A stretch of 24,792 nucleotides of DNA from a bacterium (GTDB lineage Bacteria > SAR324 > NAC60-12): NCBI GenBank assembly GCA_965233585.1, contig CBDDTI010000193.1:1-24792 (forward strand), read 5' to 3'. Within the stretch, counting starts at the first letter, position 1; each line of letters opens with the position of its first letter. The notes under the pieces are model-generated. The model ran no database searches, had not been told where the DNA came from, and saw only the letters and a program-made list of their open reading frames with translations. Below are positions 1-24,792 of the stretch, piece after piece. Made by a program: the position numbers and the translations under genes.

Positions 1-964
1 TACTGGCCACACGCTAAGGCCCGCAGCACGCTGGATATGCCTAACGCCGCTAACTCCAATTACCATCCTAGGGTTGGATGCAATCACTTTGCTCATCGGG
101 GCAAAAGGCAAGCTCACCGATCGCGATGACACCTCCTTGTTTTTAAAAGCCTCAATAAACTTTTTCATGGTGGCTGGATTAGGGTAGATGTACTGTTGAG
201 CAAAACAGTGTGAAAAGTTTTTTAATTAAAAATATGCTGAGCTGATTTCAAACTGTTTTACTCACCCCGTCGTCTCCAATAAAATATTGTTCGCGATGGC
301 TGTGGCTTTCTAGCCACTTGGAAAAGTTTACCTCCGCGGTTTTCACGCGCTCGTTAACATCCCATTTGCAGGGTCGAAACAACTCCTCTTGCTTTTTCCT
401 TGTCAAATTAATCCCATCCACCTTGGACGAAACCGGCTCCGGCTCGACATAATTTTTCCTTTTTGAATCGGGTAATTTCTTTTTGCCTGAATCGGACCTT
501 GGTCTTTTTTTCGCGCAAAACGGCTTTCCTTGATCCTCCATCTCCGGTTCTTCAATATCAGTCGGGGCATCGTCATCATCGTCATCCTCGGTATCATCTT
601 GGGCGGCATCAGACACAACATCGCTATCATCGTTATCAGAGCCGTCTTGCATGTTCTCTGAGCCGGATTCTTCAGACTCGTCATCGCTTGAATTCTCGTT
701 GTCTCTCATGTCCTCATCCTTCTCCATGTCTGAGTCGGAATCTTCTAATTGCTTATGTCCTTTGTTCGCAGATGACGAACGGGATTTGGCAAGTTTACTA
801 CTTTTTTGCTCTTTGGTGTAAACTTTTGACGTTTTTTCAACGTGGCTTTTTTCGAACGGTGTCTTTTTCGCGACCTTTTTATGCGCAGACTTCCCCTTTT
901 TTTTGTACAAGATCGTCTTGCTGCCTTTGCCATTGCTTTCAGATGATGTAGCCAGTTTACCCAT
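1..964 (-). CDS. Spliced hypothetical protein (Lys-rich N-terminus, Asp/Glu-rich tract); exons 964-266 and 192-<1, runs off the window
   Basis: ORF 248..964 has a donor GGG|GTGAGT at 265 (phase 0) and an acceptor TTTTGCTCAACAG| ending at 193. The next exon is open for all 64 codons to the window edge (YIYPNPATMKKFIEAFKNKEV...GLSVWPV). Confidence 0.7.
193..265 (-). other. Spliceosomal intron, 73 nt, phase 0
   Basis: GTGAGT...CAG, AT-rich; removal bypasses the stop at 248 and keeps the frame open. Confidence 0.7.
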
Positions 965-1656
965 GACGCGACCGATGTTTTATCTTAGGTGTGGATGTGA
1001 AGCCAGTCAAAATATTATTGGTGTTTCACCAAAAGTGCAAATTGGCTTTTATACTATTTTGACTTGTATAATGGCAAATGCTAGAATATTCTGGATGAAA
1101 TTGTGGTCAACTTTTAACCCATTTTAAGGCAAAAAAAAAGTTCTAGAAGAAACTAGAAAAATCTAAAAGCAATTATTTTCATAAAGGTTTGAAAAAAAAA
1201 TTTAAAAATGCTCATTTCTATTTTTTTGTCGGTAAAATGACCTAAAATTAGGGCATCTTTTGTAAAATGGAGAATTTTTTCCGCCTTTTTAGATGCTGCT
1301 CCTTGGCACGTGCTTTTTTTCTCACTTGAGCTAATGGTTTTTCTGCTTAATGGTTTTCAACGCTAATTTTCCTTCCAGAAAATTGTCATTCTTTATTTCT
1401 TTGACCGCAAAAAAGGGTGCAAAGACCCGATTGTTAACCTTTTAATAATTAATCTTTTTCCTTTTGCTGATTTATTTTAATGGGTGTGCTGCTAAAAAAA
1501 ATTGGCTGTTGTTTAAAAGAAAAAACAATTTTTAGCAAACACACTGTCTCATATCTTGTCATTAATTTGCTCCAATTTCGGCGCTTTTGCTTTAAGCCTT
1601 AATGCATGTGCGGAAAAATGAACAAAAATAAAGGAAAATTGCACGGAAAACACAAT

Positions 1657-1666
1657 CTGACGTCAG
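1657..1666. promoter_or_regulatory. CRE/ATF-type palindrome in the divergent intergenic region
   Basis: CTGACGTCAG contains the canonical TGACGTCA, between divergent ORFs starting at 964 (-) and 2091 (+). Function is not shown. Confidence 0.3.
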
Positions 1667-1948
1667 GTTGCGGGGATAAAAGGATTTACAAGAAGGGTTA
1701 AAATTTTCTCCAAAATTAATTATCTTTTCAAAAAACCAGGTTTAATTTTTGCGCCTTTTTTCTACTATTAAAAAGTTTACATGAATGACCCTTTTTGAGA
1801 TAAGGAGTCATTCCAAAATCTAAACTGAAACCGAAAAGATCCTGGTTTTATCTTTTAGACACTTGAAAAAAATCGTAAGTAGACAAAAAGTCTTTACAAT
1901 TTTAAAACATTGAATTTTTTTGAAAAATATTTTTAAACATAAAGTTGG

Positions 1949-2053
1949 TTAAAGTCTAAAAATTTTTTACACAAATTGAGCTTACGCAAAAAAAATTTTA
2001 ACAATTGCTTAAAGTCTTAAAATTTTTTACCCAAAATTGAGCTTACGCAAAAA
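1949..2053. repeat. Imperfect direct repeat, two copies of about 45 bp, period 60
   Basis: TTAAAGTCT(A/T)AAA(A)TTTTTTAC..AAATTGAGCTTACGCAAAAA at 1949 and 2009. Confidence 0.8.
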
Positions 2054-2090
2054 TCTTAAACCTGATTTCAATCACCCTGCTTTCTAGACA

Positions 2091-2867
2091 ATGCCGAAAA
2101 ATAGGGAATCAAGATTAATTGGTTTTAAGAGGTGTGGGCCTTTCCAAATAAAACTGGGAAGAAGGACACCAGTGGAACAAGTCTCGGTCGAGCTCACGTC
2201 CGCATCTTCCACCGTCGCGCTGCCTTCGAACTCACCGCCCGCTTCCCTTTCCACCTCTTTTATTCAAATTAGAACTGAGCCCCTTTTTTCCTCGACACCA
2301 AACACCTCGTTTAGACCGGTGTGTTACAGCCCTCCGCCTACCCCTTCGCCCGTGCCATCACCGGTCTATTCAATGCCGGCTCCCTTTCGTCCGCTTCAAC
2401 CTGGCTTGTTCTTACCGGGCCCCCCAACTCCGGCTCCACCGAGACTACCAACCATGTCTCCAACGGCTGTGTCCCTCCCGCAATCCCCAATGTTGTGTGA
2501 CATGAGGGCTTTGCGGGCTCAGCTAAGGCCGATCCGCCCGGCGCCCATAACAACTCCGCTTCTAGCAGCACCACCGCGACTCGTCATCCCCGAACCGCGA
2601 GGAGCAAGGGTGGTAAGATTACCGGGCGTGTCGGTAAATGGTGGGGTCATAAGTGAGGGGCTCGACTTGAGGGTAAACCGCCCCTGTCCGGATCCGCACG
2701 TTTTTACGGAAAAATTAAAGAAAATTTTAAGTAAGGTGTCCCCCTTGCTCGTATTTTACGAGTCGCAAGGGGGAAATTTATTTTTAAACCCGTCCATTCG
2801 CGAATTATATAAAAAAAATTTAACAGAAGTGCAAGAATATGTAGAGAGTGCTATTAATTTATTGTAA
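2091..2867 (+). CDS. Pro/Ser-rich hypothetical protein, 258 aa, with a predicted helical C-terminal region
   Basis: ATG-initiated GC-rich ORF in an AT-rich context; no family motif recognised. Confidence 0.65.
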   Translation: MPKNRESRLIGFKRCGPFQIKLGRRTPVEQVSVELTSASSTVALPSNSPPASLSTSFIQIRTEPLFSSTPNTSFRPVCYSPPPTPSPVPSPVYSMPAPFRPLQPGLFLPGPPTPAPPRLPTMSPTAVSLPQSPMLCDMRALRAQLRPIRPAPITTPLLAAPPRLVIPEPRGARVVRLPGVSVNGGVISEGLDLRVNRPCPDPHVFTEKLKKILSKVSPLLVFYESQGGNLFLNPSIRELYKKNLTEVQEYVESAINLL

Positions 2868-2962
2868 ATATAACAATTGTGTGTGTGTGTATATATAAAG
2901 ATTAGAAGATACAACATTTTTTTCCTTTTTCAGAAAAAGTTTAAAAGCGAGAGAAAAAAAGA

Positions 2963-3598
2963 ATGACGCACAAGTGTGAAACGTGTCACATATCGTTTTC
3001 CAGAAAGAGTCGTCTTGCCAATCATTTAAAATTAAAACACAGAAATCAAGCAAATCAAAATGGTCGCGACAAGTTGAGAAAGTGCCCGTTTTGTGAACTT
3101 AAATACAGTGATAAGAACGAGTTATCGTCTCACGTAGATTCGAATCACGCGGAATCAAGGGTATTTTCTAAAAGGCAAGGAGCCATTGGCGACAAAGTTT
3201 GCATTTTCCAACAAGAACTGACTCACCTAAAAAGCTCTTTGCAAGATTTTTGCAACTCTAAGCAAACGATCGAAAATGTGTTTAATCTCGTTAAAAGTCA
3301 ATTTACACATCGGGTGGTTTGTCGAATAAGTATAACAATCACGGCAGATTACGAGATACAGGGTTTAGATGAAGAAAGTCAGGGAAAAAGCGTCGACATC
3401 GATTCTTTCACGTTACGGTCAAAAGGCGTCGCGGTCAACAAATATCAAAGCGATGAGCAGATTCGAGATAGGATAAAGTCACTTTTGGCTGGATCGGTGG
3501 AGAGGGAAGACGATTTGTTAACTAGAGGTTCAGGCTGGCGATTTGCTCAACTTCAAAGTTGCAGCGTTTTAATCTATGACTGTAGCAGTATTTTTTAA
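2963..3598 (+). CDS. C2H2 zinc-finger protein equivalent to the N-terminal (GSGW) region of Polinton pPolB, 211 aa
   Basis: Two C2H2 fingers (CETC..H..H, CPFC..H..H) and RGSGWRF near the end. In Polinton polymerases GSGW typically precedes the LP..K.+IN..N.D..CF.W.+ block, which here begins the next ORF. Confidence 0.75.
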   Translation: MTHKCETCHISFSRKSRLANHLKLKHRNQANQNGRDKLRKCPFCELKYSDKNELSSHVDSNHAESRVFSKRQGAIGDKVCIFQQELTHLKSSLQDFCNSKQTIENVFNLVKSQFTHRVVCRISITITADYEIQGLDEESQGKSVDIDSFTLRSKGVAVNKYQSDEQIRDRIKSLLAGSVEREDDLLTRGSGWRFAQLQSCSVLIYDCSSIF

Positions 3599-3600
3599 AA

Positions 3601-6600
3601 ATGAACAGCGACTCTGTAAACGTGCCCGAGTATTTATTAAAGTGTCGAAGTGTTTTATGGAACAGAAAATACGATGAAAAGAATTTTCTATATTGTGTCA
3701 TAGGACATCTTTGGCCGGAAACGGCAAACATCAGACGATGCAAAAAAATTCCAAAGGAGTATGAAAGTAAATTTAACTTGCAGGGTTTAACCTTTCCCCT
3801 GCAGTTTAGTCAGATTAGCAAGTTTGTTCGAATTAACAAGCACCTACCGTTACGTATAAGAGTTCTTTTTGAAGGTGAACATCAACTGAGTGTTTTAGAC
3901 GTTTTCTCCAATAGATCTGGCGAGAAAAATAAGAACAAAAATACGCTAAATTTGCTAATGATTAAAAGTGATCGTCAAATTTCATCGGCCAATAAAGACA
4001 GCATTGACGTAAATGGCATTTCCAACGTAAAAGACCTTGAGCATCAGCACCATTTTTTCACTATTGCTAATTTAAATGGCTTTCTGAACAACCGAAAATC
4101 TGCTATGACCAAAGGAAGACGGCATAGAAGTCAGTTTTATTTTTGTGACAGCTGTTTAAGAGATTTTCGTTCGCGCAAGAAACAAAAATTACACGAAAAA
4201 ATCTGTCAAATGGATAAACAAGCGGTGATTTATCCGGAAAAGGGCAGTGTCTTGAATTTCGATAAGCAAAGAAATGCTTTTAAAGCACCTGTAGTGGGAT
4301 TTGCTGATTTTGAGTGTTTTATGGAAAAGTCAGAGCAAGAAGCAAAAACATGTAAAACATGCGGAAAAGCGTGGGTGACATGCGAATGTCAAGTGTCGGG
4401 ATGCGCTGAGCTAAGTAAACATCGAGCTTGCGGCTATTCAATTTGTTTTGTCGATTCGGAAAACGAAGTATTTTATCAAGAAACGTACAGTGGAAAAGAC
4501 GCTGTGGAAAATTTTCTATCAAAGCTGGATTATTTCGAAGAATTAGTGGAAGCGCGAAAGCAACGGTTCAAGAACACATCTCAAATTATAGCGAGCAAAC
4601 ATGATTGGGAAGAGTACCACGCCGCCACGCTGTGTCATATTTGCAAAAAAGATTTTGATTCAGGCTCGCGATTATATAAAAAAGTGGTTGATCATGATCA
4701 CGTCACCGGAAACATTGTTCAAGCGGCGCATTCTATTTGCAATCTGCAACGACAGGGCCCATTTAGAACACCTATATACTTTCACAACGCCAAGGGGTAA
4801 GTACAGACTTTTTTAATATTTATAATCCTTGACTTGAGGGAAAGTCATTTTAAATTTTTTTAATTTTAAGATATGACATAAATCTACTAGTAGAAAAATT
4901 GGACAAAGAGGCTAATCTGATGGCGAGTAACCAAGAAAAGTTTAGGACAATCACTATTGGAAAATTTCAAATTAGGGATTCTCTAGAGCACGTGCCATCC
5001 AGTCTTGATGCGCTCATGACCGATTTATGCAAGGATGAGACGTTTACCTTTCCGATTCTCAAACAATTCGAGCCTTACAAGAGGCTGTGGACGCGACAAA
5101 AGGCGAAAGGTTTAAAATTATTGAAAAGAAAAGGTGTATATCCGTATGAATACTTTTCATCATATGAGTCGATTAAAAACAGTCAATTTCCGCCAAAAGA
5201 CGCTTTCTACTCGAGATTGAGCGAAGCCCACATCTCAACCGAAGATCATAAGCACGGCTATGAAGTGTTCAAGTTTTTTAATTGTAAAAATATGGACGAC
5301 TACATGAAGTTATATTGCGGACTGGACGTGATTTTGCTGGCTGAGATTTTTGTAAAGTATCGAGAAATGGTGATGAAGCACTTTGAGTTGGATCCCATCT
5401 ACTATTTAGGCATACCTGGCTTGTCATTTGACATCATGCTTAAAATGTTTCAAAATGAAGAAAGAAAAGACGAAGAAGAGATTAGTCCTGATTTAATGTC
5501 GAAACCACCGGGCTCATTGGACTTGTTTCACGATCCGGCAATGGAACAGTTTTTTACACGCGGCATTAGAGGAGGGCAGAGTTTTATAGCTACCAGACAA
5601 GCGACGGGTCAGGCCGATCCTAAAGCGAGCGGCGAGCATTTACTATATGTAGATGGTAATATTTTTTATTAAACGTCAAAGAAAAAAGATTGATTAAAAT
5701 TACGATACATTTTCAGCTAACAATCTTTACGGCAGCATGGAAACACGCATGCTGCCGGTGGGTAATTTTAAGTGGGTGCCAAAAAAGGAGATAAAAACAT
5801 GGACGGACAAGGACATTTTGAATTTGCCTTCGCAAAGCAGGATTGGCTATGCTTTTGAAGTGGATTTGCACTATCCAAAAAAATATCATGAGGTAAATAA
5901 TTGTTTCTGCTAAACACCAACTGCTAGAAAAATTTTTTTTATTTATTTTGCAGAGAGATGATCAATTTCCTTTGGCTCCTTACACTGACACAATAAACTT
6001 TGATGATCTGTCACCGTTTAACAAACAACTTTTGAAGAAGCACTGTCCGACTGATTACAAAAACAAACGTTACAGTTCGCGAAAGCTTCTTGCCACATTC
6101 TACCCGCGACGTAAATATGTCGTCTTGTTAGATAATCTAAAGTATTATTTGAGGCGAGGGCTGAAGCTTACAAAAATCAGACGAGCGGTCAAGTTTGAGC
6201 AAAAAGACTTTTTAAAAAACTTCATCACAAAAATTACAAAATTAAGGTCGGAGGCAAAAACTGATTTTGAATTACGTCTCTTCAAGTTGTTTGCCAATTC
6301 CACATTTGGCAAATTTATAGGTAAAATAAAGTAATGGCTCCCTTTTTTCACAATAAAATGTTTAATTTTTTTCAGAGAACGCGCGAAACTACATCGAAAT
6401 CGTATTGTGCCACAATGAAAAGAAGCTGAGAAAGACTTGCATGGGTCAGCATGTTTCGAATTTGAAAGTCATAAACGAAAACCTTGTGGCTGTCATGAAA
6501 AAACCGGCCGTTATTGAAATGAAGAAACCGTTGGCGGTGGGGTTTGCGATTTTGGAACTATCCAAACTCTACATGTATCGATCGTACGACAAATTTAGAC

Positions 6601-7163
6601 GCTACTTTGGAACGGAGAATCTAAGGTTGTGCTTTTCGGACACAGACTCGTTTCTGTTTCGAGTAAAATGTCAAAATTTAGTTAAAAAGTTAAAAAGAAT
6701 GGAACACATGTTCGACTTCTCAAAATACGATAAAGATCACGAGTTGTTTGACGATAGCAGAGCCAATCATTTGTTTTACTTCAAAGACGAGCTAAAAGGA
6801 AAGGCCGCAATTACTGAATTTATCGGCTTAAGGCCAAAATGTTACAGCATGACGGTCAAGGATTTGAAAACCCGAGGAGCCAGCGTAAAGAAAATTTGTA
6901 AGGGCCTTAAAAAAACTAGTATTAAAAATCACTTGACCTTTGAGGATTATAAAAAATGTTTAAACGAATCAACATTGGTATATAAGCCTCTTGTTAATAT
7001 TAAATCAAAGAATCACAGAATGTCAACAACCTACCAACGGAAAATTGCTCTATCTGCCATGGACACCAAACGTTATGTGCTTTCTTGCGGAAAGTGCACT
7101 TTGGCCTTAGGAAGTTGTCATGTAAAAAAATGTTATAAACACGAATGTAAGGAAATCAAATAA
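3601..7163 (+). CDS. polB: Protein-primed family-B DNA polymerase, 5 exons: 3601-4796, 4871-5655, 5717-5892, 5954-6320, 6376-7163 (3312 nt, 1103 aa)
   Basis: The spliced product has Exo I FADFEC, Exo II FHNAKG|YD, Exo III YCGLDV, motif A YVD|ANNLYG, GYAFEVDLHYP, FPLAP, motif B KLFANSTFGKFI|EN, motif C FSDTDS and LRPKCYS. Junction phases (2,1,0,1) all match and there are no internal stops. Confidence 0.93.
4797..4870 (+). other. polB intron 1, 74 nt, phase 2
   Basis: GG|GTAAGT...TTTTAAG|A; restores HNAKGYD. Confidence 0.9.
5656..5716 (+). other. polB intron 2, 61 nt, phase 1
   Basis: G|GTAATA...TTTTCAG|CT; restores YVDANNLYG. Confidence 0.9.
5893..5953 (+). other. polB intron 3, 61 nt, phase 0
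   Basis: GAG|GTAAAT...TTTTGCAG|AGA; restores YPKKYHERDDQFPLAP. Confidence 0.88.
6321..6375 (+). other. polB intron 4, 55 nt, phase 1
   Basis: G|GTAAAA...TTTTTCAG|AG; restores FGKFIENARN. Confidence 0.88.
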
Positions 7164-7225
7164 ACGTATTGATAAAAATTGATCGTAATATTTTGTCTCT
7201 TTTTTGTGACAAGAAAATTAAAAAC

Positions 7226-7912
7226 ATGGACGGATTTGATTTGCGCTTTAAGCTTCCATCTAACTTACTCGCGGTAGGTCCCACTTCTTGCGGAAAAACG
7301 TCATGGCTAAAAAAACTGGTTGAAGATAGGGCCGTAATGTGCTCGCCCGTTCCGGAATGTATGATTCTATTTTACAAAGAATTCCAACCGACCTATGCTG
7401 ATATGGAGCGGGGGATGAACGATGACGCGCGTGAAAAGAGGTTTTGCAAATTTTCATCCATGCCAGAATCGGTTGAAGAGATGAAAGATATACTGGAAAC
7501 GTTTCCTAGAGCTCTTCCGAAAATTGTGGTATTTGACGATTTTCTTGATGAAGTAGGATCGGTGCTAAAGCACTTTTTCACGGTTTTAACGCATCATTAT
7601 AATTGTTTGACAGTTTTTTTGTGTCAGAACATGTTTAGCGCCAAAAGCGAACTCAGAATGCTCAGCATCAACTCGCAGTACATGATTTTATTCAACAATC
7701 CCAGAGACCGTAGCGCCGTCTCGCACCTGGCTAAACAGGTGTATCCGGGTAACGTGCATCGGCTAAACGATGCATATGCGGCAGCAACCGGTGAAAGACC
7801 TTATGGCTATTTACTGCTGGATTTTCATCAGCAGCAAAATAATTTGGTTCGATTAAGAAGTCATATTTTTCCGGACGAACAGCCTACAAGGGCGTACAAC
7901 GTACGCACGTAA
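7226..7912 (+). CDS. A32/FtsK-HerA-like genome-packaging ATPase, 228 aa from ATG 7226
   Basis: Walker A GPTSCGKT, Walker B IVVFDDF, HHYNCLTVFLCQN and R.LS.NSQY.ILFNNPRD, as in Polinton packaging ATPases. ATG 7226 (AAACATGG) is preferred over the TTG at 7169. Confidence 0.9.
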   Translation: MDGFDLRFKLPSNLLAVGPTSCGKTSWLKKLVEDRAVMCSPVPECMILFYKEFQPTYADMERGMNDDAREKRFCKFSSMPESVEEMKDILETFPRALPKIVVFDDFLDEVGSVLKHFFTVLTHHYNCLTVFLCQNMFSAKSELRMLSINSQYMILFNNPRDRSAVSHLAKQVYPGNVHRLNDAYAAATGERPYGYLLLDFHQQQNNLVRLRSHIFPDEQPTRAYNVRT

Positions 7913-7942
7913 GAATGGCAAAATCGTTAAGTAGAATGGTAA

Positions 7943-8296
7943 ATGACGAAATCACTAGAAAAAGCAGTTTCTCTTTTAAACGCGGTAAAACATTTAAAAG
8001 ACCGTGACTGTTCCAATTTCATTGGATGTTTAAACGAGGAAGGCATCTATACTCTGTGTCGAATAATACACTACGTTTTGAACGGAGAGCTTACTTTTAG
8101 TAAGCGCGTTCGAGCAAGGTTAAGATCGAAAGTCGGGTGTCATCTGCCTGACTTTAAAAAACTGTCAAATTACCCGCGCAATAGTCGAGATATTTGCAAA
8201 AAGAAGCGAATACTGCAAAGAGGAGGCATAATCGGGGTTCTGACGGCTATTGCTAGCGCTGTAATACCTCTAATCACTCAACTTATTACAAAATGA
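7943..8296 (+). CDS. Small basic protein ending in QRGG plus a hydrophobic/amphipathic helix (Polinton-type putative virion protein), 117 aa
   Basis: C-terminus KKKRILQRGG-IIGVLTAIASAVIPLITQLITK; position next to the ATPase. Confidence 0.7.
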   Translation: MTKSLEKAVSLLNAVKHLKDRDCSNFIGCLNEEGIYTLCRIIHYVLNGELTFSKRVRARLRSKVGCHLPDFKKLSNYPRNSRDICKKKRILQRGGIIGVLTAIASAVIPLITQLITK

Positions 8297-9867
8297 AAAA
8301 GAAACAGGAAGAGGACGTATCCACCATGTTTTTGGTGCCGAAACGAATTTACCTAGCCGTGAGGGAGGTCATTAGCGAAGATGACAAGCTTAATCAATTA
8401 GATCAATTGAATAAAGGTACAAATTATATAGAAGACGCTATTCAATTTAAGCAGCAGAAATCCTACAAGACACAACCGGAAGATTTGAAGAAAACGGTTT
8501 CAACTTTGGTAAATACGTTCAATAACATTGAGCAGCCAGCGCAGATCGAAATAAACTCCTTGCCTGCTCGAAACAGCGAAGAACTCTCGCAAGATGGTTT
8601 TACTTCTGTCCCTCCATCAAGCGGAAGCCAGCTCGATGGTCCTAATTTCATCTTTCCACCTGTAAATCCGACGGAAGCGGAAAACGTAAAACATCAAAAG
8701 GAAATAACGCTTTCGCATCAGGAAATTGCATCGGAAAATTTACTTAATAACGAGCCTCAGCCTCAACATTGCGAACCATCAAACATCGACTTGAAAAAGA
8801 AAAACAACGTTCCGCCAAAACTTAGATGCCCGTTTTGTAACTATGCAACCTACTCAAGGGTATATTTTCTTATGGAACATTTGCGTAATAAACACAACTA
8901 CCGCGCTAGTTTGGAAGAAGAAAGATCAGCAAGAGAAACATTGGAAAAGGCCAAAATTGAGCGCAATTTAAACAAAACCAAGGAACCTTTGCCGTCTTTT
9001 CGCGGCAAAAGAAAAAACATTAGTGTCGAGGATGAAAGCGGCATTCCATTTAAGCGGCGAAAACGTGATTGTTTAACTAAAAATTACGATGAAAATGAAC
9101 CACTTTCGAAATTAAGACGCAATGTAAAAAATAAAAAATTAAATGCAAAACCAACAAAGAAAAAGGTAAAAAAGTCAACTTTTGATGAAAACGAGCCACT
9201 TTCTAAATTAAGACGTCAAGGTGTAAAAACGAAGAAAGAAAAGAAAGAAAAGTCAACTTTTGATGAAAACGAGCCACTTTCTAAATTAAGACGTCAAGGT
9301 GTAAAAACGAAGAAAGAAAAGAAAGAATCAAGAAAATTAACTGTTGATGAAATACCTAATCAAGATGGGAAGCTTTTTAAATTACGAAAAAACCCGTTTT
9401 ACATGAAGCCTTATAAAAAATACAATACGAAGAAAGAAAAGAAAGAATTAAAAAAGTTGACTGTTGATGAAATACTTAAACAGGATGGGAAGCTTTTTAA
9501 ATTACGAAAAAACCCGTTTTACAAGAAGCCTTGTGAAAATTACGATGAAAATGAACCACTTTCGAAATTAAGACGCAATGTAAAAAATAAAAAAATAAAT
9601 GCAAAACCGACAAAGAGAAAGTTAAAAGAGTCGACTTTTGATGAAAACGAGCCACTTTCTAAATTAAGACATCGAGGTGTAAAAACGAAGAAAGAAAAGA
9701 AAGAGTTAAAAAAGTTGACTGATGATGAAATACAGCTTTTTAAATTACGAAAAAACCCATTTTACAAGAAGCCTTATAAAAATTACGATGAAAATGAACC
9801 ACTTTCAAAATTAAGACGCAATAGTAAAAAAAAAACCCGTTTTACAAGAAGCCATTTCCTAAATTGA
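8293..9867 (+). CDS. C2H2 zinc-finger protein with a Lys/Arg-rich repetitive C-terminal half, 524 aa
   Basis: CPFC..H..H finger, six DENEPLSKLR repeats and three LFKLRKNPFY repeats; ATGA overlap with the upstream stop. Confidence 0.75.
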   Translation: MKKKQEEDVSTMFLVPKRIYLAVREVISEDDKLNQLDQLNKGTNYIEDAIQFKQQKSYKTQPEDLKKTVSTLVNTFNNIEQPAQIEINSLPARNSEELSQDGFTSVPPSSGSQLDGPNFIFPPVNPTEAENVKHQKEITLSHQEIASENLLNNEPQPQHCEPSNIDLKKKNNVPPKLRCPFCNYATYSRVYFLMEHLRNKHNYRASLEEERSARETLEKAKIERNLNKTKEPLPSFRGKRKNISVEDESGIPFKRRKRDCLTKNYDENEPLSKLRRNVKNKKLNAKPTKKKVKKSTFDENEPLSKLRRQGVKTKKEKKEKSTFDENEPLSKLRRQGVKTKKEKKESRKLTVDEIPNQDGKLFKLRKNPFYMKPYKKYNTKKEKKELKKLTVDEILKQDGKLFKLRKNPFYKKPCENYDENEPLSKLRRNVKNKKINAKPTKRKLKESTFDENEPLSKLRHRGVKTKKEKKELKKLTDDEIQLFKLRKNPFYKKPYKNYDENEPLSKLRRNSKKKTRFTRSHFLN

Positions 9868-9907
9868 TTGTTAGAAAGTTTTAAGAAAAACAAGATAAAA
9901 AGATAAA

Positions 9908-9913
9908 AATAAA
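9908..9913 (+). terminator. Candidate polyadenylation signal of the plus-strand gene block
   Basis: AATAAA 40 nt after the last stop, followed by T-rich sequence. The context is AT-rich, so chance is possible. Confidence 0.4.
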
Positions 9914-10035
9914 ATTTTCATATTTTTGCAATTTCCTTAACTATTTAGTAACAGCATTCCGTTGAAGTTTATAGCAAAAAAGAAAAGAAAAACCCGAGTT
10001 ATTGAGCACGTTTCTTCGTCTATGGACCGCTGACA

Positions 10036-10095
10036 TTCTGGTGCCTGGATCTAAAATTTCACGCCAGCGTCAAAATTGAGATCCCGGCACCAGAA
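10036..10095. repeat. 60-bp near-perfect palindrome (29-bp arms, 4 mismatches)
   Basis: TTCTGGTGCCTGGATCT...ACGC-CA-GCGT...AGATCCCGGCACCAGAA. Confidence 0.85.
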
Positions 10096-10148
10096 AAAGT
10101 AATGCAGACAAGTAAAATTTTGATGCATGCATGAAATTTTTAGTGCGT

Positions 10149-10460
10149 GCACCAACTTTTTCATGCCTGCATTAGACAGAGCAATGCAGGCACCAAACTT
10201 TTGATGCACGCACCAAACTTCTCATGCCAGCATTAGACAAAGCAATGCAGGCACCAGATTTTTGGTGCACGCGCCAAACTTTTCATGCCAGCATTAGACG
10301 GAGCAATGCAGGCACCAAACTTTTCATGCACGCACCAAACTTTTCATGCCGGCATTAGACGGAGCAATGCAGGCACCAAACTTTTGGTGCACGCACCAAA
10401 TTTTTCATGCCAGCATTAGACACAGCAATGCACGCACCAAACTTTTGGTGCACGCACCAG
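10149..10460. repeat. 61-bp tandem array, about 5 copies, each made of three GCA...TGC mini-palindromes of about 20 bp
   Basis: GCATTAGAC recurs at 10169, 10230, 10291, 10352 and 10413; subunits are GCATT..AATGC, GCACCAAACTTTTGGTGC and GCACCAAACTTTTCATGC. Confidence 0.92.
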
Positions 10461-10734
10461 AAATCGGTGTGCATTCAGATGCTTTTAGATTGAATCAGTT
10501 GACGTTTTGCTTGCAACGAGAACGCATCTAGATGAATTTAGATGAATTTAGAACGCATTTAGATTTTTTTAGATGAATTCGGGCCGAAAACATCTAAAAA
10601 CAGGCTCCCGTCATCCGTCTTGAAGGGAGGGAATTCTTTCTTTGCGGCATATCTACTATACCATGGTAAAGCTGCCTATGGTCAATCCCCAGGGCAATAT
10701 AGCCGTTATCTGCGAATGAGGAAAAAGGACGTAC

Positions 10735-13766: not shown

Positions 13767-13932
13767 GTTATGTATTAATTTCGTAAACGCATAATTGGAT
13801 ATTTTGCCTCCCACTTTTGCGAGTCCCAACTCGCATTCGCAAAACTTGTTTTCACTTCGTAAAATATGAAGTGAAATAAATTCAGAATAGATTTAGCTTT
13901 CACTGTTCAAAGTCGTACGTTATTTCTATACT
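13767..13932. repeat. 166-bp direct repeat, copy 1
   Basis: Identical by eye to 14515-14680. Confidence 0.95.
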
Positions 13933-14514: not shown

Positions 14515-14680
14515 GTTATGTATTAATTTCGTAAACGCATAATTGGATATTTTGCCTCCCACTTTTGCGAGTCCCAACTCGCATTCGCAAAACTTGTTTT
14601 CACTTCGTAAAATATGAAGTGAAATAAATTCAGAATAGATTTAGCTTTCACTGTTCAAAGTCGTACGTTATTTCTATACT
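14515..14680. repeat. 166-bp direct repeat, copy 2
   Basis: Identical by eye to 13767-13932. Confidence 0.95.
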
Positions 14681-14724: not shown

Positions 14725-14767
14725 AACCCGTTCCGGGGGGTACAAGCCCTTGGGTTAATACCCAATT

Positions 14768-17700
14768 ATGCAACGGGATGATGACCCCGTAGCTGGCGCC
14801 AAAGCAGCCGGACCTAGCACGATATCAGACGTACTAGCTACTTTGCAGCTATCTGATGACTCAGAAGCCCAGGTAACCTCTTTTGTTGATTCTCTCGCGC
14901 AGGGTCTAAGCGGACCTCGCTTCAGAAAATTATTAACCTATATCCTCAAATTGGTGGAACTAAATAGGTCTAAATATGAAACACTCCGATCGGAGCAAGC
15001 ACGATTTATTGATCTAGCAACTTCAAATAGGGACGAGCTAAATCAGATTTTAACAGTATTACAGGAACGATTGCCACCTGTGGCTCCAGTTCCTAGGGTT
15101 CCTGCAGTGCCAGCAGTGGCAACGCAACCTTTTCAGGCTCCACTTCCTGCAGTGCCAGCAATGGCTACGCAGCCCTCACAGGCAACACTGCCTAATATAC
15201 CAGCTGTGGCACCCCAGGTCTCACAATCAACCGAGCCACCAGCCCCTATGGCTCCGGCTTCTGCACCTGTGCAGCCCTCAGCCTTCCAGGCAGTTCCTCC
15301 ACCATCAGCCCCTCAGGCTGCAGGTATGGGATATTTCGCAGCTCCTGCGACGTTTACTCCCTCCATTCCAAATCAAGACGGAACCGTCTCACGCCGAATG
15401 GATCAAGTTGGTAATAACGTCATTGTTACCTTTTCTGGTGACGACGAGATGGCCTCTAAAAAAGCCAAACTTTTCAGATCCTCCGCGAAGTACGACATTT
15501 TTACAGGTCAAGACATGAGCAAATTTCCCGAATGGGTTGCGCAGTTCTTGTCTGGGGTTAATTTATTCCAACCAACTGAACCGAATGCTTGCAGAATTGC
15601 ATTACATTTACTTAGAGACAAAGCCGCAGAAATGTCGAAAAATGTCTCTCAACAGGTTACGATGCGAAATTTGCAGGAACTCCTGACAACTCTCGATCGA
15701 ATTTTTAATACTTCGGGCAACAGAATTGTTGCAGTCGGTCTCTTTAACAGCTTTACTCAGCGCGAAGATATGCCTGTACAAGACTATGCTATTCGAATTG
15801 AGCAATTGTTTTATCGAGCCTATCCCGGTATGAACCCTGACTTGTCTATTTTTCTTATGGATCGATTCATTAATGGACTAATTTCAACGGACGTTAAGCA
15901 GCGATTACGGATACCACCTCAGCCGAGTTATTTGCGTGAAGCGGTTGAAAAAGCCATGTCACTAACCGCAGCAATTTACCATGGGGACCAAATAATGAAA
16001 CAACGTTCCATGGCATGGAAAATGGCGGCATCTGCCAGCAATCCATTAAACACCAAATCATCTAAGAATCCCAGGGGACACATTCAGATGATCGAAACAC
16101 CAGAAGACACTCCAGCCACAGTGCAAGTGATTCGTAAGTGGTGTACTCTGCATAAAACAGACAAACACTCGAATGCTGATTGTAGAGCGCAAAAGGAAAC
16201 TGCTCCCTCCAGCACCGCAACCGCAACCGCGTCCAAGAAATGTCCCAAGGGATCCGAGAAGCGAAAAGCTAAATCCCGAAAATTGAGATTTAAGTCAACC
16301 TCTGACAAAAAGAAATTCCTACGTTCTATAGAGGATACAGAAGGGGTTTCCCTCGAGAGTGCCAGCTCAGACGATGAAGACGTTGTCGAACAAAGCCTCA
16401 TGCAATTGGATCCTGTTTCTGGTGGAACAACGGATGAAGAAGAGGAAGGCGAGCTCCATATACTCATGTTGGACCCCGACTCATTACTCGATGACCCCGA
16501 CATAAATATGGATAGCGTCTTTTTGGATCCTAGCGCTTCAACCGAAGCTTTGGATTCTGGGGTAAGCGGTATCAGATTGGAAGGGGAAAAAGCGGACTCT
16601 CCGATGTCAATGAAGGCAGGATGCAGCTCTTCAGGATTCAGTCCATTAGACACTGCTCTCTTGAACACAGCCATGAATACTCCTGTCGCTCCCGTTCCCA
16701 CTGTTAAGGATGAGAAGAATCCCTTCTCTCCGGAACAATATCCTAACGTTGAAGAAGATATGTTCCCTCCTTTGGCTTCCAACATTATCAATCCCGAAGC
16801 CAGCGCCGTCGAGTCCTTACCCAACCAGAATTATCTTCTCTTTGGAGTTTACTACCAGCCGGTACCACCTCCTCATAATGTGGTTGTCACCCACTCTACG
16901 GTCCCCAGGCCGGACTTGGTTCCCGCACCTTTAGGACCATTACTGAATGTTCACCTTCCTGTAGCTGCATCCGAGATTCCTCTGCCTGCTACAGCTACGG
17001 ACACTGAGACGAACGGATCCGACCTCTCCGTCCCTTTGGTCGAAGTCGCCCCCACTTCAGCTGCAATTGCTGACACCGCCGCCAAAACTCCAGCAAACCC
17101 TGACCCCAAAGAAGACAAGGAGTTTGCTGTCCCGAAGGAACCTTCCTCCAGCGGGTCAACGAAAACTCATAGAAAGGCTAGGCCTAGGTCCCGCTCCTCG
17201 TCCTCTCCCAACTCTGAACCTTCCCAGGCTCCTCGACCTCAAGGAGTCAGTCCTTCCGACTCCTTAACGAACGCCAAGCGAGTCCGCGGCATCGGCCGAG
17301 GAAAAGCAAAGGAAGCGGCCAACGTGATGCCTATGCCCTCGTCAAATCTTCTAACGGGAGCAGTTGCCCTGGAAAACATCAGGATTACTGTCCCTACCGG
17401 AGGCGGCTCTAGGAAGATCGAAATTGTCCCGGATTATCCTGCCAATATTGGCCACCTGGCCAAACTGGAAGATGAAACCAGAGGACAAGAGGAAGTCCAA
17501 CTCTCTTCCGCCATGAAGACCAACTTCACGGTTCAGCTCCCTCCTTCCGACTCCTTAACGAACGCCAAGCAAGTCCGCGGCGTCGGCCGAGGAAAAGCAA
17601 AGGAAGCGGCCAACGTGATGCCTATGCCCTCGTCAAATCTTCTAACGGGAGCAGTTGCCCTGGAAAACATCAGGATTACTGTCCCTACCGGAGGCGGCTC

Positions 17701-18052
17701 TAGGAAGATCGAAATTGTCCCGGATTATCCTGCCAATATTGGCCACCTGGCCAAACTGGAAGATGAAACCAGAGGACAAGAGGAAGTCCAACTCTCTTCC
17801 GCCATGAAGACCAACTTCACGGTTCAGCTCCCTCGAGAAGATCCGCAGGAAGATTCCGAAATTGACATCCTCACTGGGGAAATCAAGAACCCCAAAACGG
17901 TGCCAATGCAATTTTCCTTTCAAGCCAATTTAGTTCTTGAAGATCACCAGCGCTTTGCACAAGAAGTCCTGAAGCTGGAACCCGATTCCTGGGACCGCAC
18001 AAAGGTTGAAAGCAATCCCTGTCTATTCTACCATGCGTATTTTCTGGACTAG
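14768..18052 (+). CDS. gag: Gag-like protein (Ty3/Gypsy type) with a long acidic/Pro/Ser-rich C-terminal extension, 1094 aa
   Basis: Capsid-like motifs FTGQD..FPEWVAQF, LLRDKA, QREDMPVQDYAIRIEQL and DRFINGL, then a knuckle WCTLHKTDKHSNADC (Cx2Hx4Hx4C). Confidence 0.8.
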   Translation: MQRDDDPVAGAKAAGPSTISDVLATLQLSDDSEAQVTSFVDSLAQGLSGPRFRKLLTYILKLVELNRSKYETLRSEQARFIDLATSNRDELNQILTVLQERLPPVAPVPRVPAVPAVATQPFQAPLPAVPAMATQPSQATLPNIPAVAPQVSQSTEPPAPMAPASAPVQPSAFQAVPPPSAPQAAGMGYFAAPATFTPSIPNQDGTVSRRMDQVGNNVIVTFSGDDEMASKKAKLFRSSAKYDIFTGQDMSKFPEWVAQFLSGVNLFQPTEPNACRIALHLLRDKAAEMSKNVSQQVTMRNLQELLTTLDRIFNTSGNRIVAVGLFNSFTQREDMPVQDYAIRIEQLFYRAYPGMNPDLSIFLMDRFINGLISTDVKQRLRIPPQPSYLREAVEKAMSLTAAIYHGDQIMKQRSMAWKMAASASNPLNTKSSKNPRGHIQMIETPEDTPATVQVIRKWCTLHKTDKHSNADCRAQKETAPSSTATATASKKCPKGSEKRKAKSRKLRFKSTSDKKKFLRSIEDTEGVSLESASSDDEDVVEQSLMQLDPVSGGTTDEEEEGELHILMLDPDSLLDDPDINMDSVFLDPSASTEALDSGVSGIRLEGEKADSPMSMKAGCSSSGFSPLDTALLNTAMNTPVAPVPTVKDEKNPFSPEQYPNVEEDMFPPLASNIINPEASAVESLPNQNYLLFGVYYQPVPPPHNVVVTHSTVPRPDLVPAPLGPLLNVHLPVAASEIPLPATATDTETNGSDLSVPLVEVAPTSAAIADTAAKTPANPDPKEDKEFAVPKEPSSSGSTKTHRKARPRSRSSSSPNSEPSQAPRPQGVSPSDSLTNAKRVRGIGRGKAKEAANVMPMPSSNLLTGAVALENIRITVPTGGGSRKIEIVPDYPANIGHLAKLEDETRGQEEVQLSSAMKTNFTVQLPPSDSLTNAKQVRGVGRGKAKEAANVMPMPSSNLLTGAVALENIRITVPTGGGSRKIEIVPDYPANIGHLAKLEDETRGQEEVQLSSAMKTNFTVQLPREDPQEDSEIDILTGEIKNPKTVPMQFSFQANLVLEDHQRFAQEVLKLEPDSWDRTKVESNPCLFYHAYFLD
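17251..17832 (+). repeat. In-frame 291-bp (97-aa) tandem duplication in gag
   Basis: 17251-17541 versus 17542-17832; two substitutions seen (R/Q, I/V). Confidence 0.93.
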
Positions 18053-19119: not shown

Positions 19120-19200
19120 TTTGGAGCATCACGGTCCGGAAAGGACATCAATTCTGGCCTTTTACAAATCCACTGAACCAACTAATTCAGCAATACCATC

Positions 19201-21279
19201 ATGGCTGAAAAAGATGCAAAGCTCCAAGACATAGAGGATGTGGAAATCGAAGATCTTCAAGCCGAGGATGAAGAGCCTGTTTCCTCTGTTTATGTATTGG
19301 CAGGAGAGGCCTTCTCGATTTCTAAAGATAGCCAAAAGACTATCGATATGCTGTCTGAACAGCTACAAGAGGCCCTCCCTGACACTGGACAGAGATTGAC
19401 AGACATGGGAAGAATTGTCGACCGGGTGCAAACCCTAATGTCTACCAACTTCAGGGATATCAGGAGCCCCAGAAAGCTTAAGGAGAAGGCCAAGAGTCTT
19501 AGGACTACCCTCAGGCGCAGGATTACTGAACTAAGTAAGAAGATCCTGCCCAAGCTTGAGGAAATTGACCCTCCGCAAGCCGAAGTGGGAGCTAAGATAG
19601 AAGCACTCAATGAGGCTACAATCGAGCGCCAGCGACTTCTAACAGACAAGGCGGCCTTGACACTCATCCTACGGAGGGACATGACCGACGATGAAGCGGT
19701 AGTGGACGTTGCTCGAAGAAAAGATAGAGTTGAGGTGGCGAACAGCCTGATACAGCAAGCCAGAGTCTGGGTCAACGAATATGGTCCAGGAGAGGGCAAT
19801 CCTGGAGGCAAATTGTTGGTGCTGGGATCAGAAGACGTCGCAGAAGTCGATAAGGATTACGATACATCGGTGGCTAAGTTAGAGGAGATCGATGAACAAC
19901 AAGGTCAACTCCCTAAGTCGGTCGGAAAAGAGCCCTCCCCAAGATTGATTTCGCCGGAGCCGAGCAAACGTCCAGCGTTTACATCTACCCCTTATCAGCC
20001 TGACTTTCAACCCATGTCTCCGCAAACTGCTCCGAGAGTTGCGAGGAAGGTTAGCTTTGGGGAAGATACAAACTTGGGTAAGCAATCGACAGCGGAAGGA
20101 GGGGCTAGAAAATACCAGGATACTCCCACACGCAAACCTACCTATAGGGATCATAAAGAGGAGTACTATAGGTATCAGAACCAGAGTCAAACAGATTTGC
20201 CTTTGTTTCCCGAAGATCTTTCGGGATCTGGATCTGGATCTTCGGAGTATTTTACGGCCAATGACGAATCTTTCAAATCCTCGGTACATGCTGAAGATGA
20301 TAACGCATTTACACAGACTCTTAAGAACCTCTCAAACAGCATCATTGTCCAGTACAATCAACCATCCGCCAATGAGAAGGTTCCAAAGTTCGACGGAGAC
20401 TATACCAAGTGGAACGCCTTTTGGCAGGCATTCACAGTCCTCGTCGACAAGAATCCCAAGGTACCTGTTATCTCAAAGCTCAACAAGTTGAATCAGGCAG
20501 TTGAAGGTGAGGCAGCGGCAGTCATTTCAATGTTCGAGTTCAACGAAGAAAGCTATGAATTAGCGAAGATGGCTTTGATCAACGAGTACGGGGATCCGGC
20601 ACTTTGTGCCAACAAGATGTTAAGAGATTTGCAGAATCTCGAAAGGGTGAAGGCCAATGATGTGGAGGGTCTTTGGAATCTCCATATCAGAAGCAAACAA
20701 TTGGTTCTCCGGGTTCAGGGTTTGTATCCGACAATTATGGCGCAACCCATCTTGATGACTTCTACTATTGAGAACAAGATGAGTCCAGAATGTCTGTACA
20801 AATGGGAAGAGGAGAACACTAGGAGGAAAAGGGATCTATCACTTCTGCCGCCAGACAAACAGTTACAATGGACACTCAATTGGCTGGGTGACTATATCCA
20901 AACTTGTAAGAGGTCTACCATAAAAATGAATATGGGCGACGACAAAGCCAAGAAGAGCTCCAACGGAAGCAAGAATGGTGGTAATGGAGGGGCGGTTCCC
21001 AAGACCCTGAACAATTTCTTCACCATGGCGGAACAGAAGATTCAGCAGGAGCAGTCAGACAAGTGCATCTTCTGTGGAGGCAACCATTTCGCTGGCAAGT
21101 GTCGCAAGAACATTACTGCTAATGCGGCCGTGGAGAAGGCTAAGAAGGCAAAAGCTTGCCTTAATTGCCTAAAGCCTGGACACTTTGTCAGGGATTGTCA
21201 ACAGAGTGGATGCAAGGAGGCGGGGTGTAACGGCAAACATCATGTGAAACTTCATGGAGGTGATTTTCGGTTGAAGTGA
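19201..21279 (+). CDS. gag: BEL/Pao Gag, 692 aa, intact
   Basis: PKFDGDYTKWNAFWQAF (DUF1759-like); knuckles CIFCGGNHFAGKC, CLNCLKPGHFVRDC and CKEAGCNGKHHVKLH. Confidence 0.9.
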   Translation: MAEKDAKLQDIEDVEIEDLQAEDEEPVSSVYVLAGEAFSISKDSQKTIDMLSEQLQEALPDTGQRLTDMGRIVDRVQTLMSTNFRDIRSPRKLKEKAKSLRTTLRRRITELSKKILPKLEEIDPPQAEVGAKIEALNEATIERQRLLTDKAALTLILRRDMTDDEAVVDVARRKDRVEVANSLIQQARVWVNEYGPGEGNPGGKLLVLGSEDVAEVDKDYDTSVAKLEEIDEQQGQLPKSVGKEPSPRLISPEPSKRPAFTSTPYQPDFQPMSPQTAPRVARKVSFGEDTNLGKQSTAEGGARKYQDTPTRKPTYRDHKEEYYRYQNQSQTDLPLFPEDLSGSGSGSSEYFTANDESFKSSVHAEDDNAFTQTLKNLSNSIIVQYNQPSANEKVPKFDGDYTKWNAFWQAFTVLVDKNPKVPVISKLNKLNQAVEGEAAAVISMFEFNEESYELAKMALINEYGDPALCANKMLRDLQNLERVKANDVEGLWNLHIRSKQLVLRVQGLYPTIMAQPILMTSTIENKMSPECLYKWEEENTRRKRDLSLLPPDKQLQWTLNWLGDYIQTCKRSTIKMNMGDDKAKKSSNGSKNGGNGGAVPKTLNNFFTMAEQKIQQEQSDKCIFCGGNHFAGKCRKNITANAAVEKAKKAKACLNCLKPGHFVRDCQQSGCKEAGCNGKHHVKLHGGDFRLK

Positions 21280-24200: not shown

Positions 24201-24792
24201 GACGATTGGCCTTTTCTGACTTAGATAATGAACAAAAGAACCCTATTCTTTTAGCAAAAGACAGTTTTCTTACAAAGATGTTAGTTCTGGATTATCATGA
24301 GCGTCATCATCACACAGGGGTTGACCAGACGCACTTCGGGTTAAGGGAGAGGTTTTGGATCTTACAATCGCGACATCTGATATGGAAGCTTCTACGCACT
24401 TGCGTAAAATGTCGCCGCATTACTAGTCAGCCTTACGCACCTTTAATGGGCAATTTACCTGAGGGACGCCTCTCTCTCAGACACTGAGCCTCCGTGGACA
24501 CACGTGGGGGTTGACCTCACGGGGGCTATTCAGCTGAGACGAGTGGGTAGACGAACTATTACTCCCGAGAAGGCCTACATTGTGTTGTACACCTGTTTGG
24601 CTACTCGTGGCGTTTACCTCGACTTGATGATAACTAACAAGACCGAGGACTTCTTGTTATCATTCAAAAGGCTCTGTGGGGAGTTGGGCACTCCCAAGTA
24701 TTTATACAGCGATCAAGCCGGCTATTTTGTTCGCCAAGGATGAGCTTAAAGAATCTCATGAGAACATGGAAGAAGGATTAAGAACATTGCAT
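21280..24792 (+). pseudogene. pol: BEL/Pao pol (protease, RT, RNase H, integrase), disrupted
   Basis: LDTGS and DILLG (PR); YYLPHRAV, RIVFDAS, GDIGKMFLQI and YVED for YVDD (RT); FSDAS, TIPKKEL, FCDS and NPADICSRG (RNase H); H..HHH..CVKC and GVDLTG..SDQA (IN). In-frame stops at 21787 and 22099; frameshifts near 22660, 24475 and 24732. Confidence 0.92.

Follow-up and report, generated by a model that had tools for sequence, protein, structure and literature searches.

The stretch analysed here, called the window throughout, is contig C193 (24.8 kb) in its entirety; the assembly to which it belongs has 747 contigs totalling 12 Mb and is filed as prokaryote. On its forward strand, positions 3601-7163 very probably (we put the probability at roughly 0.9) hold the polymerase gene of a recently active animal Maverick/Polinton, a gene that contains four genuine spliceosomal introns of the U2 type (GT-AG). 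Removal of four short segments restored one uninterrupted reading frame, the near copies of the gene in the same assembly kept that frame open, and more distant loci carried introns at matching codons and phases. From these sequences, we infer that RNA is spliced at the four junctions and that the protein is produced.

Gene model and polymerase motifs

Before joining, positions 3601-7163 (+) consisted of five stop-free stretches in shifting frames. The spliced frame comprised 3312 bases (1103 codons and a stop) and ran from ATG to TAA with zero internal stops. For the naming of conserved blocks, we assumed the definitions DxE, NxxxYD and YxxxD for the exonuclease and DxxxLYG, KxxxNSxFGK and DTDS for the polymerase; the intron-bearing blocks are presumably Exo II, motif A and motif B. 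The gene model was composed as follows.

3601..4796, + strand: exon 1, encoding the N-terminal domain, Exo I (GFADFEC) and, at about 4624-4764, a Cys/His motif of HNH/endonuclease-VII-like type
4797..4870, + strand: predicted intron 1, 74 nucleotides (nt), GTAAGT..TTTAAG, phase 2, 78% A+T
4871..5655, + strand: exon 2, which completes the Exo II block (YD), includes the Exo III region and opens motif A (LLYVD)
5656..5716, + strand: predicted intron 2, 61 nt, GTAATA..TTTCAG, phase 1, 80% A+T
5717..5892, + strand: exon 3, 176 nt, ANNLYG ... HYPKKYHE
5893..5953, + strand: predicted intron 3, 61 nt, GTAAAT..TTGCAG, phase 0, 75% A+T
5954..6320, + strand: exon 4, holding motif B (KLFANSTFGKFI)
6321..6375, + strand: predicted intron 4, 55 nt, GTAAAA..TTTCAG, phase 1, 76% A+T
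6376..7163, + strand: exon 5, with motif C (FSDTDS) and a C-terminal domain whose tail is Cys-rich, ending at the TAA stop

A preliminary description of the window had proposed four AT-rich GT-AG segments of 55-74 nt, which was borne out by the joined 1103-codon frame and by an A+T content of 75-80% in the introns versus 61% in the exons. Its placement of introns 1, 2 and 4 at HNAKG|YD, at D|ANNLYG and just past motif B was also correct. Intron 1 lay between HNAKG and YD, with the first two bases of the HNAKG Gly codon forming the 3' end of exon 1, intron 2 lay within the Ala codon of YVD-A-NNLYG, and intron 4 directly followed FANSTFGKFI, the end of KLFANSTFGKFI. Every one of the four introns brought in-frame stops or a frame shift. 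All four had GT..AG ends, extended donors and pyrimidine-rich acceptors, as in U2-type GT-AG introns.

A default list of open reading frames (ORFs; 60 amino acids (aa) or more, ATG/GTG/TTG start) reported the gene as the pieces 3601..4800, 4899..5672, 5948..6334 and 6405..7163 and left exon 3 unlisted, just as the 176-nt exon at 5717-5892 had been missing from the ORF track of the preliminary description. A stop-to-stop reading placed exon 3 inside a 71-aa frame (5698..5913). The expectation that ORF-based screens would call the gene fragmented holds for this start-codon list, which splits the gene and drops exon 3. Rfam gave 0 matches across the whole window at gathering scores, neither to a self-splicing group I/II intron nor to another curated RNA family; segments of 55-74 nt are far below the size of self-splicing group I/II introns.

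By its sequence, the window gene is a protein-primed-type family-B DNA polymerase (pPolB). When the exons were scanned singly, exon 2 (30.3 bits) and exon 4 (26.8 bits) passed the cut-off of PF03175 (DNA_pol_B_2; 25.8 bits), which together with the restored frame backs the polymerase reading and supports the earlier designation as a virus-type protein-primed DNA polymerase. The blocks followed one another in the product in the order GFADFEC, HNAKG|YD, YCGLDVILL, YVD|ANNLYG, KLFANSTFGKFI| and FSDTDS (bars mark introns 1, 2 and 4). In an alignment with 18 full-length relatives, KLFANSTFGKF and the other product blocks fell in conserved columns, and the blocks conserved among these relatives at the sites of introns 1, 2 and 4 were HNxxxYD, DxNNLYG and NSxFGK. 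The Cys/His HNH-like motif was common to all 18. A sequence search of solved structures returned 0 matches at an E-value (E) of 1 or better for exons 1, 2 and 5. The profile of the 18-relative alignment matched 114 chains of solved structures, and among the 60 of these that were listed, every chain was a C2H2 zinc finger.

Selection on the spliced frame among near copies

The assembly contained ten copies with 87.7-99.8% identity over window positions 3401-7400 (sub-family A). The copies were aligned with MAFFT, and the nine others were compared with the window copy. Sister copies without the GT-AG ends, which had been named beforehand as a finding that would count against the introns, were looked for in this alignment, where splice ends are not forced; GT..AG was kept at 36/36 sites in the nine other copies. 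Within 3601-7163, 41/41 indel records fell in the 251 intron bases and 0/41 in the 3312 exon bases. By hand count, about 25 distinct indel events lie behind the 41 records, and intron 1 alone showed eight distinct indels among the copies. The C246 copy was without the first 165 exon bases, an effect solely of where its contig begins. The exons of C58, the most distant copy, differed at 353/3312 positions (10.7%) and its introns at 67/241 (27.8%). The comparison of exon and intron divergence proposed in the preliminary description accordingly found free change confined to the introns.

The 1103-codon spliced frame, with ATG and stop, was present in 9/9 full copies, and the tenth copy, cut by a contig end, had 1049 codons and zero stops. 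The ratio of non-synonymous to synonymous divergence (dN/dS) against the window copy was 0.035-0.21, with a value of 0.083 for C58 at a dS of 0.51. Since indels were confined to introns and dN/dS was low, the copies have diverged under purifying selection on the spliced frame and on that frame alone. The earlier claim of an intact gene was upheld, as the spliced frame was open in all ten copies within this dN/dS range.

Intron sites across diverged sub-families

A purpose-written protein-to-DNA aligner, which places GT..AG introns in any phase, reproduced the window model exactly. It was applied to every one of the 63 polymerase loci found in the assembly with tblastn, of which 40 scored over 2000. 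Intron sites are written as residue.phase of the window product. Five sub-families were distinguished (locus counts, identity to the window product, sites).

Sub-family A (the window's): 10 loci, 92-100%, sites 398.2, 660.1, 719.0 and 841.1
Sub-family B: 2 loci, 68-69%, sites 398.2, 578.1, 660.1 and 841.1; 719.0 absent
Sub-family C: 2 loci and a partial locus, 66%, sites 398.2, 578.1, 660.1, 719.0 and 841.1
Sub-family D: 15 loci, 54-62%, sites 398.2, 578.1, 660.1, 719.0 and 841.1; 841.1 not reached in two
Sub-family E: 11 loci, 57%, sites 398.2, 578.1, 660.1, 719.0 and 841.1

Sites 398.2 (intron 1) and 660.1 (intron 2) were each present in 40/40 loci. Site 719.0 (intron 3) was present in 38/40, the two sub-family B loci having continuous coding sequence there, and site 841.1 (intron 4) also in 38/40, the other two alignments ending at residue 841. 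A fifth site, 578.1, was found in 30/40 loci and was absent from all ten sub-family A loci. Sub-families B-E together provided 30 more loci, at 54-69% amino-acid identity, with introns at matching codon and phase; the spliced alignment to other copies that had been suggested thus returned introns at the same sites across five sub-families. Twelve representative spliced models were all open, 11 of them full-length (1097-1122 aa) and one, the C246 copy truncated at the contig edge, 1048 aa long.

Introns at one site were unalike in sequence and length between sub-families. Intron 4 measured 55-74 nt in A, B and C, 1.08-1.35 kb in E and 1.6-2.32 kb in D. At the positions that the aligner does not force, 120 distinct introns had A at +3 in 114 cases and at +4 in 118, C/T at -3 in 116, and T at -5 in 107 and at -6 in 104, which fits the usual animal consensus. 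Window introns 1-4, compared with the 12 Mb of the assembly, matched only family-A copies (10/10, 9/9, 9/9 and 9/9, respectively), which argues that they are not members of a dispersed introner or miniature inverted-repeat transposable element (MITE) family; beyond A/T runs, the four were mutually unalike.

The enlarged last intron contained GC-rich inserts (0.48-0.53) at C411:5515-7772 and C30:10485-11822 (loci L024 and L023, respectively), and the inserts of D and E were open in several frames on both strands. A nested gene in this long intron was considered and rejected, the antisense ORFs being without Pfam match and unalike between D and E (E 0.12). These long antisense ORFs are read as GC-rich repetitive insertions.

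The pPolB phylogeny called for in the preliminary description was run as a quick maximum-likelihood tree with midpoint root and Shimodaira-Hasegawa-like approximate likelihood ratio test (SH-aLRT) support, from 12 spliced models, one locus of an intronless lineage and 8 outside proteins. Sub-families A-E grouped together with an SH-aLRT of 100 on a long stem, with a split of (A,B,C) versus (D,E). Given the topology ((A,B,C),(D,E)), two precise losses are the simplest and best reading of why A lacks 578.1 and B lacks 719.0. The ancestor of the five sub-families would then have had at least five introns, after residues 398, 578, 660, 719 and 841; the window's family would have lost 578, another family 719, and two families would have expanded the last intron to 1-2 kb. 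Precise intron loss classically occurs via recombination with reverse-transcribed spliced message. If RNA-mediated loss applies here, the precise losses would hint indirectly that the junctions are used.

The Maverick/Polinton element

Window positions 1-10618 are the right half of a repeated unit, which in contig C435 spans about 1502-22191 (~20.7 kb). Such units recurred at many places, in different flanking sequence, and were 98-99.8% identical. The following features accompany the polymerase gene in the window.

2963..3598, + strand: zinc-finger ORF, 211 codons, two C2H2 zinc fingers (Pfam zf-C2H2, E 3.6e-6)
7226..7912, + strand: P-loop ORF (GPTSCGKTS), a single ORF with a weak Pfam ATPase_2 match (19 bits versus a cut-off of 33.2)
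10020..10618, no strand: right terminal inverted repeat, inverted copy ~20 kb upstream in six contigs

The inverted copies of 10020-10618 were located in contigs C435, C401, C47, C530, C382 and C426. The inverted ends of the element were ~600 bp each, and the right one included 61-bp tandem repeats at 10123-10459. An integrase was encoded in the left half (C435; L021:3852-5003, minus strand), with a match to rve (E 4.1e-10) and a weak Chromo match. On the combined sequence evidence of the polymerase, the rve integrase, the long inverted ends and the ~20.7-kb length, the element is classed as Maverick/Polinton type. The Polinton-like lineage proposed beforehand was borne out by the ~600-bp inverted ends, the rve and chromo integrase and the length of the unit.

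The P-loop ORF at 7226-7912 is likely the putative packaging ATPase of the element. A 449-aa ORF (L021:8068-9414) resembled clusters in which 15-30% of the members carry PF21738 DJR-like_dom (atlas score 0.98, taken as a lead). Peptidase_C5 (adenain-type protease) was not found in the element, and the sole match in the assembly was on another contig. The element termini were ragged, some copies ending in ...CCGTTTTTACTACAAC and others in ...CATCCGT, and no clean flank pair for a 6-bp target-site duplication was found. An intron in the integrase gene was considered and rejected: the two ORFs on the minus strand overlap, and an in-frame ATG and the lack of any intron-like segment make them look like separate genes. 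Indel clustering across the whole element was too noisy for intron calls in its other genes.

The left half also encoded a TATA-binding-protein-like ORF (PF00352, E 1e-16; L021:6119-6685, minus strand), beside which an ORF at L021:5356-6114 (minus strand) had a weak TFIIB-type zinc ribbon (E 1.3e-4, under the cut-off). A full-text literature search on Polinton and TATA-binding protein retrieved, judged by titles and abstracts, no paper on such a gene. At the right end of the element, window positions 8257-9867 held a 536-codon ORF without Pfam match, consisting largely of 78-nt and 120-nt tandem or dispersed repeats. The repeats were A-rich and Lys/Glu-rich, with coordinates including 9078-9835.

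The zinc-finger ORF ends with a TAA in a T6A5 run, 2 nt 5' of the polymerase ATG at 3601. Its homologue in the relatives P0001, P0002, P0011 and others is the N-terminal module, there fused to the polymerase; given this fusion, the 1103-aa product alone may not be the whole functional unit. The stop was kept in 9/9 copies covering that site, and the ORF was likewise separate from the polymerase in sub-families B-E. Two ways of joining the ORF to the polymerase were considered and rejected. A frameshift is opposed by the stop kept in 9/9 copies, the extra A of one copy lying past the stop, and the 2-nt spacer is too short for any intron. The layout suggests a bicistronic message or re-initiation, or else a mode of joining not yet recognised.

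Origin of the contig

The assembly had marker scores of 92% complete and 2% contaminated. The five contigs that reach 100 kb (2.9 Mb in all) had a bacterial-like long-ORF cover of 79-87%, and most of the other 742 contigs (9.1 Mb) had under 50%. The contig of the window also carried a BEL/Pao retroelement at 19186-24792, with matches to DUF1759, Peptidase_A17 and Integrase_H2C2. Because the BEL/Pao retroelement shares the contig, the host is an animal, and the contig is animal DNA binned into a bacterial genome. Animal repeats were also seen on smaller contigs, namely Mavericks on 50 contigs and BEL/Pao.

Elsewhere in the window, a 1097-codon ORF at 14759-18052 had a weak PNMA (Gag-like) match and a 99%-identical 291-nt tandem duplication (17251-17834), and an exact 166-nt direct repeat was present at 13767-13932 and 14515-14680. 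Actin-family fragments of 26-42 residues, ~1.9 kb apart, were detected at C577:473-6299 (locus L030) and on contig C64. The actin-like pieces on these two contigs suggest that host genes have kilobase introns, unlike the 55-88 nt introns of the element.

Relatives with and without introns

A phmmer search with exon 5 against 1.84 billion representatives yielded 6236 proteins at an E of 1e-3 or better; only five relatives were above 50% identity, all of them metagenome-assembly fragments. The 18 full-length relatives (1056-1458 aa; 26-40% identity among aligned rows) read through all four intron sites, and P0005-P0009 also read through site 4. A second polymerase lineage in the same assembly (~35% identity) had a single 888-aa ORF across all four sites (L025:507-3173, minus strand, contig C657). 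This lineage also occurred on contigs C606, C315, C322, C581, C492 and C493.

A species-representative genome collection was scanned with an alignment of exon-5 homologues, which gave 11 relative loci in other 'bacterial' bins, and the aligner was run on 8 of the 11. Five loci of one bin (L031, L033, L035, L036 and L039; 37-44% identity) shared introns at 662.0 (5/5), 903.0 (5/5) and 832.0 (4/5). These introns were 82-402 nt long and frame-shifting or stop-bearing, with GTAAGT/GTGAGT..TTTCAG ends. In another bin, L034 (38% identity) had a 54-nt, 80% A+T intron at 660.1 with two in-frame stops, and its codon, phase and GATG|..|CTAA context matched window intron 2. The occurrence of 660.1 in L034 and in the window clade would reflect either shared descent or two gains. 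The spliced aligner placed no intron in the polymerase core of L032 and L037. By these gene models, intron-split polymerases occur in at least three lineages. A scan of a viral contig collection gave 5 pattern matches and no relative, a metagenome contig scan gave 1 weak locus (39% identity over 40 residues), and a scan of the species-representative genomes with a single protein gave 18 pattern matches, none confirmed.

Comparison with known systems

The polymerase of Polintons had been described beforehand as normally a single long ORF, which matches two published surveys. In that of vertebrate Mavericks, the ORFs of intact elements are intronless, 'in agreement with Kapitonov and Jurka (2006)', intactness being defined by intronless ORFs and GeneWise gaps being taken as damage (PMC8097293). 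In that of nematode Mavericks, core genes are called intronless and introns are confined to cargo genes (bioRxiv 10.1101/2022.07.12.499685). The window gene resembles these canonical pPolB genes in its PF03175 family, rve integrase, long inverted ends and ~20 kb length; unlike the core genes described there as intronless, the window clade keeps four or five introns. In a full-text literature search, with Repbase, supplements and several earlier Polinton papers outside its scope, no animal Maverick polymerase turned up for which conserved spliceosomal introns are described. Intron-split Maverick polymerases are probably commoner than the available literature suggests.

The adenovirus DNA polymerase (E2B) is a protein-primed family-B enzyme of a related virus group, and its nuclear expression uses spliced RNA. 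In adenoviruses, leader exons are spliced onto a coding body that is essentially continuous, whereas the window gene is cut in the catalytic core, within or next to the Exo II, A and B blocks. Elements of the Maverick-Polinton class with spliceosomal-type introns are also described from dinoflagellates, whose Maverick-Polinton-like proviruses contain introners (PMC11957031). Those introners form dispersed families mostly judged younger than integration (PMC11957031), whereas the introns of the window are unique sequences, appear older than the five sub-families and are found in an animal host. The pPolB2 of nematodes and oomycetes has an inserted HNH nuclease (PMC10748475). The window product is similar in having a Cys/His HNH-like motif (DHDHVTG...AAHSICN) in its exonuclease half, and differs in that the motif, at 20 bits in exon 1, is below the Pfam Endonuclease_7 cut-off of 23.6 bits.

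Alternative explanations

Several observations weigh against the reading of a spliced, functional polymerase gene. Contigs of unrecorded kind (4 runs, one study) cover the introns, and no joint in them matches any intron; a single joint from 5804 to 5940 (GG..TT, depth 4.85, one contig) coincides with no intron. GT and AG are forced by the aligner, so that 100% presence across the 40 loci is by construction. The tree is a quick search, midpoint-rooted, without a settled order among A, B and C, and the polarity of loss versus gain rests on parsimony. Lastly, the polymerase ATG is 2 nt past the stop of an ORF that is fused in relatives.

A decaying pseudogene, with four small insertions that by coincidence start with GT and end with AG, would account for the four or five separate frames that ORF-based annotation gives, and GT and AG are frequent dinucleotides. 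This was effectively discounted, since dN/dS was 0.035-0.21, exon indels numbered zero in ten copies, every copy was open, and intron sites were kept at 54-69% amino-acid identity. The different flanks and 0.2-13% divergence of the copies likewise oppose their being assembly duplicates of one locus. Recent introner- or MITE-like insertions have a precedent in dinoflagellate Maverick-Polinton-like elements, inside which introners are reported (PMC11957031), and are extremely improbable here: each intron matched only the ten family-A copies in 12 Mb, the four had nothing in common beyond A/T runs, and the intron sites predate the split of the five sub-families. It is also very unlikely that the loci are a domesticated host gene family, derived from a Maverick polymerase, intron-gaining, amplified by duplication and no longer mobile. 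Introns combined with strong purifying selection are typical of a cellular gene, but this gene lies inside ~20.7-kb units with ~600-bp inverted repeats, an integrase and other element ORFs, and these units are 98-99.8% identical and scattered over many places that differ in their flanks.

The introns may also be real and their splicing regulated, such that retention keeps the polymerase off until the host state allows full splicing. Every intron has in-frame stops or shifts the frame, and the introns persist through diversification, both of which would suit such a switch; the two precise losses show that single introns are dispensable, and we consider this refinement unlikely. Under the preferred reading of an intron-split element gene, the element would be copied as DNA, and the introns would for that reason be carried into every new copy and persist there. 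The polymerase would be made only from a nuclear transcript processed by the host spliceosome. Passive retention, help in export or translation, evasion of host silencing directed at intronless mobile DNA and regulated retention are all compatible with the upkeep of the introns.

Implications

A 12-Mb 'bacterial' bin at 2% contamination can be mostly animal repeats, and marker-based scores miss such content. On a wider and tentative view, which we hold to be doubtful at present, introns in Maverick polymerases would be a recurrent, selectively kept trait rather than an oddity of one genome and would tie expression to the host nucleus. If so, introns might aid escape from surveillance of intronless mobile DNA, or export and translation, and the two precise losses would show recombination with reverse-transcribed copies of the element's own spliced messages. 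From such losses one could learn whether sequence passes between DNA elements of this kind and their own spliced RNA.

The conserved introns imply that, as with adenoviruses, the polymerase message must go through the nucleus and the spliceosome of the host, and host transfer would then require compatible splice signals. Mavericks/Polintons are screened, and judged 'intact', largely via uninterrupted ORFs. A clade with a splicing-dependent polymerase would be scored as fossil, and the activity and diversity of these elements in invertebrates may be underestimated.

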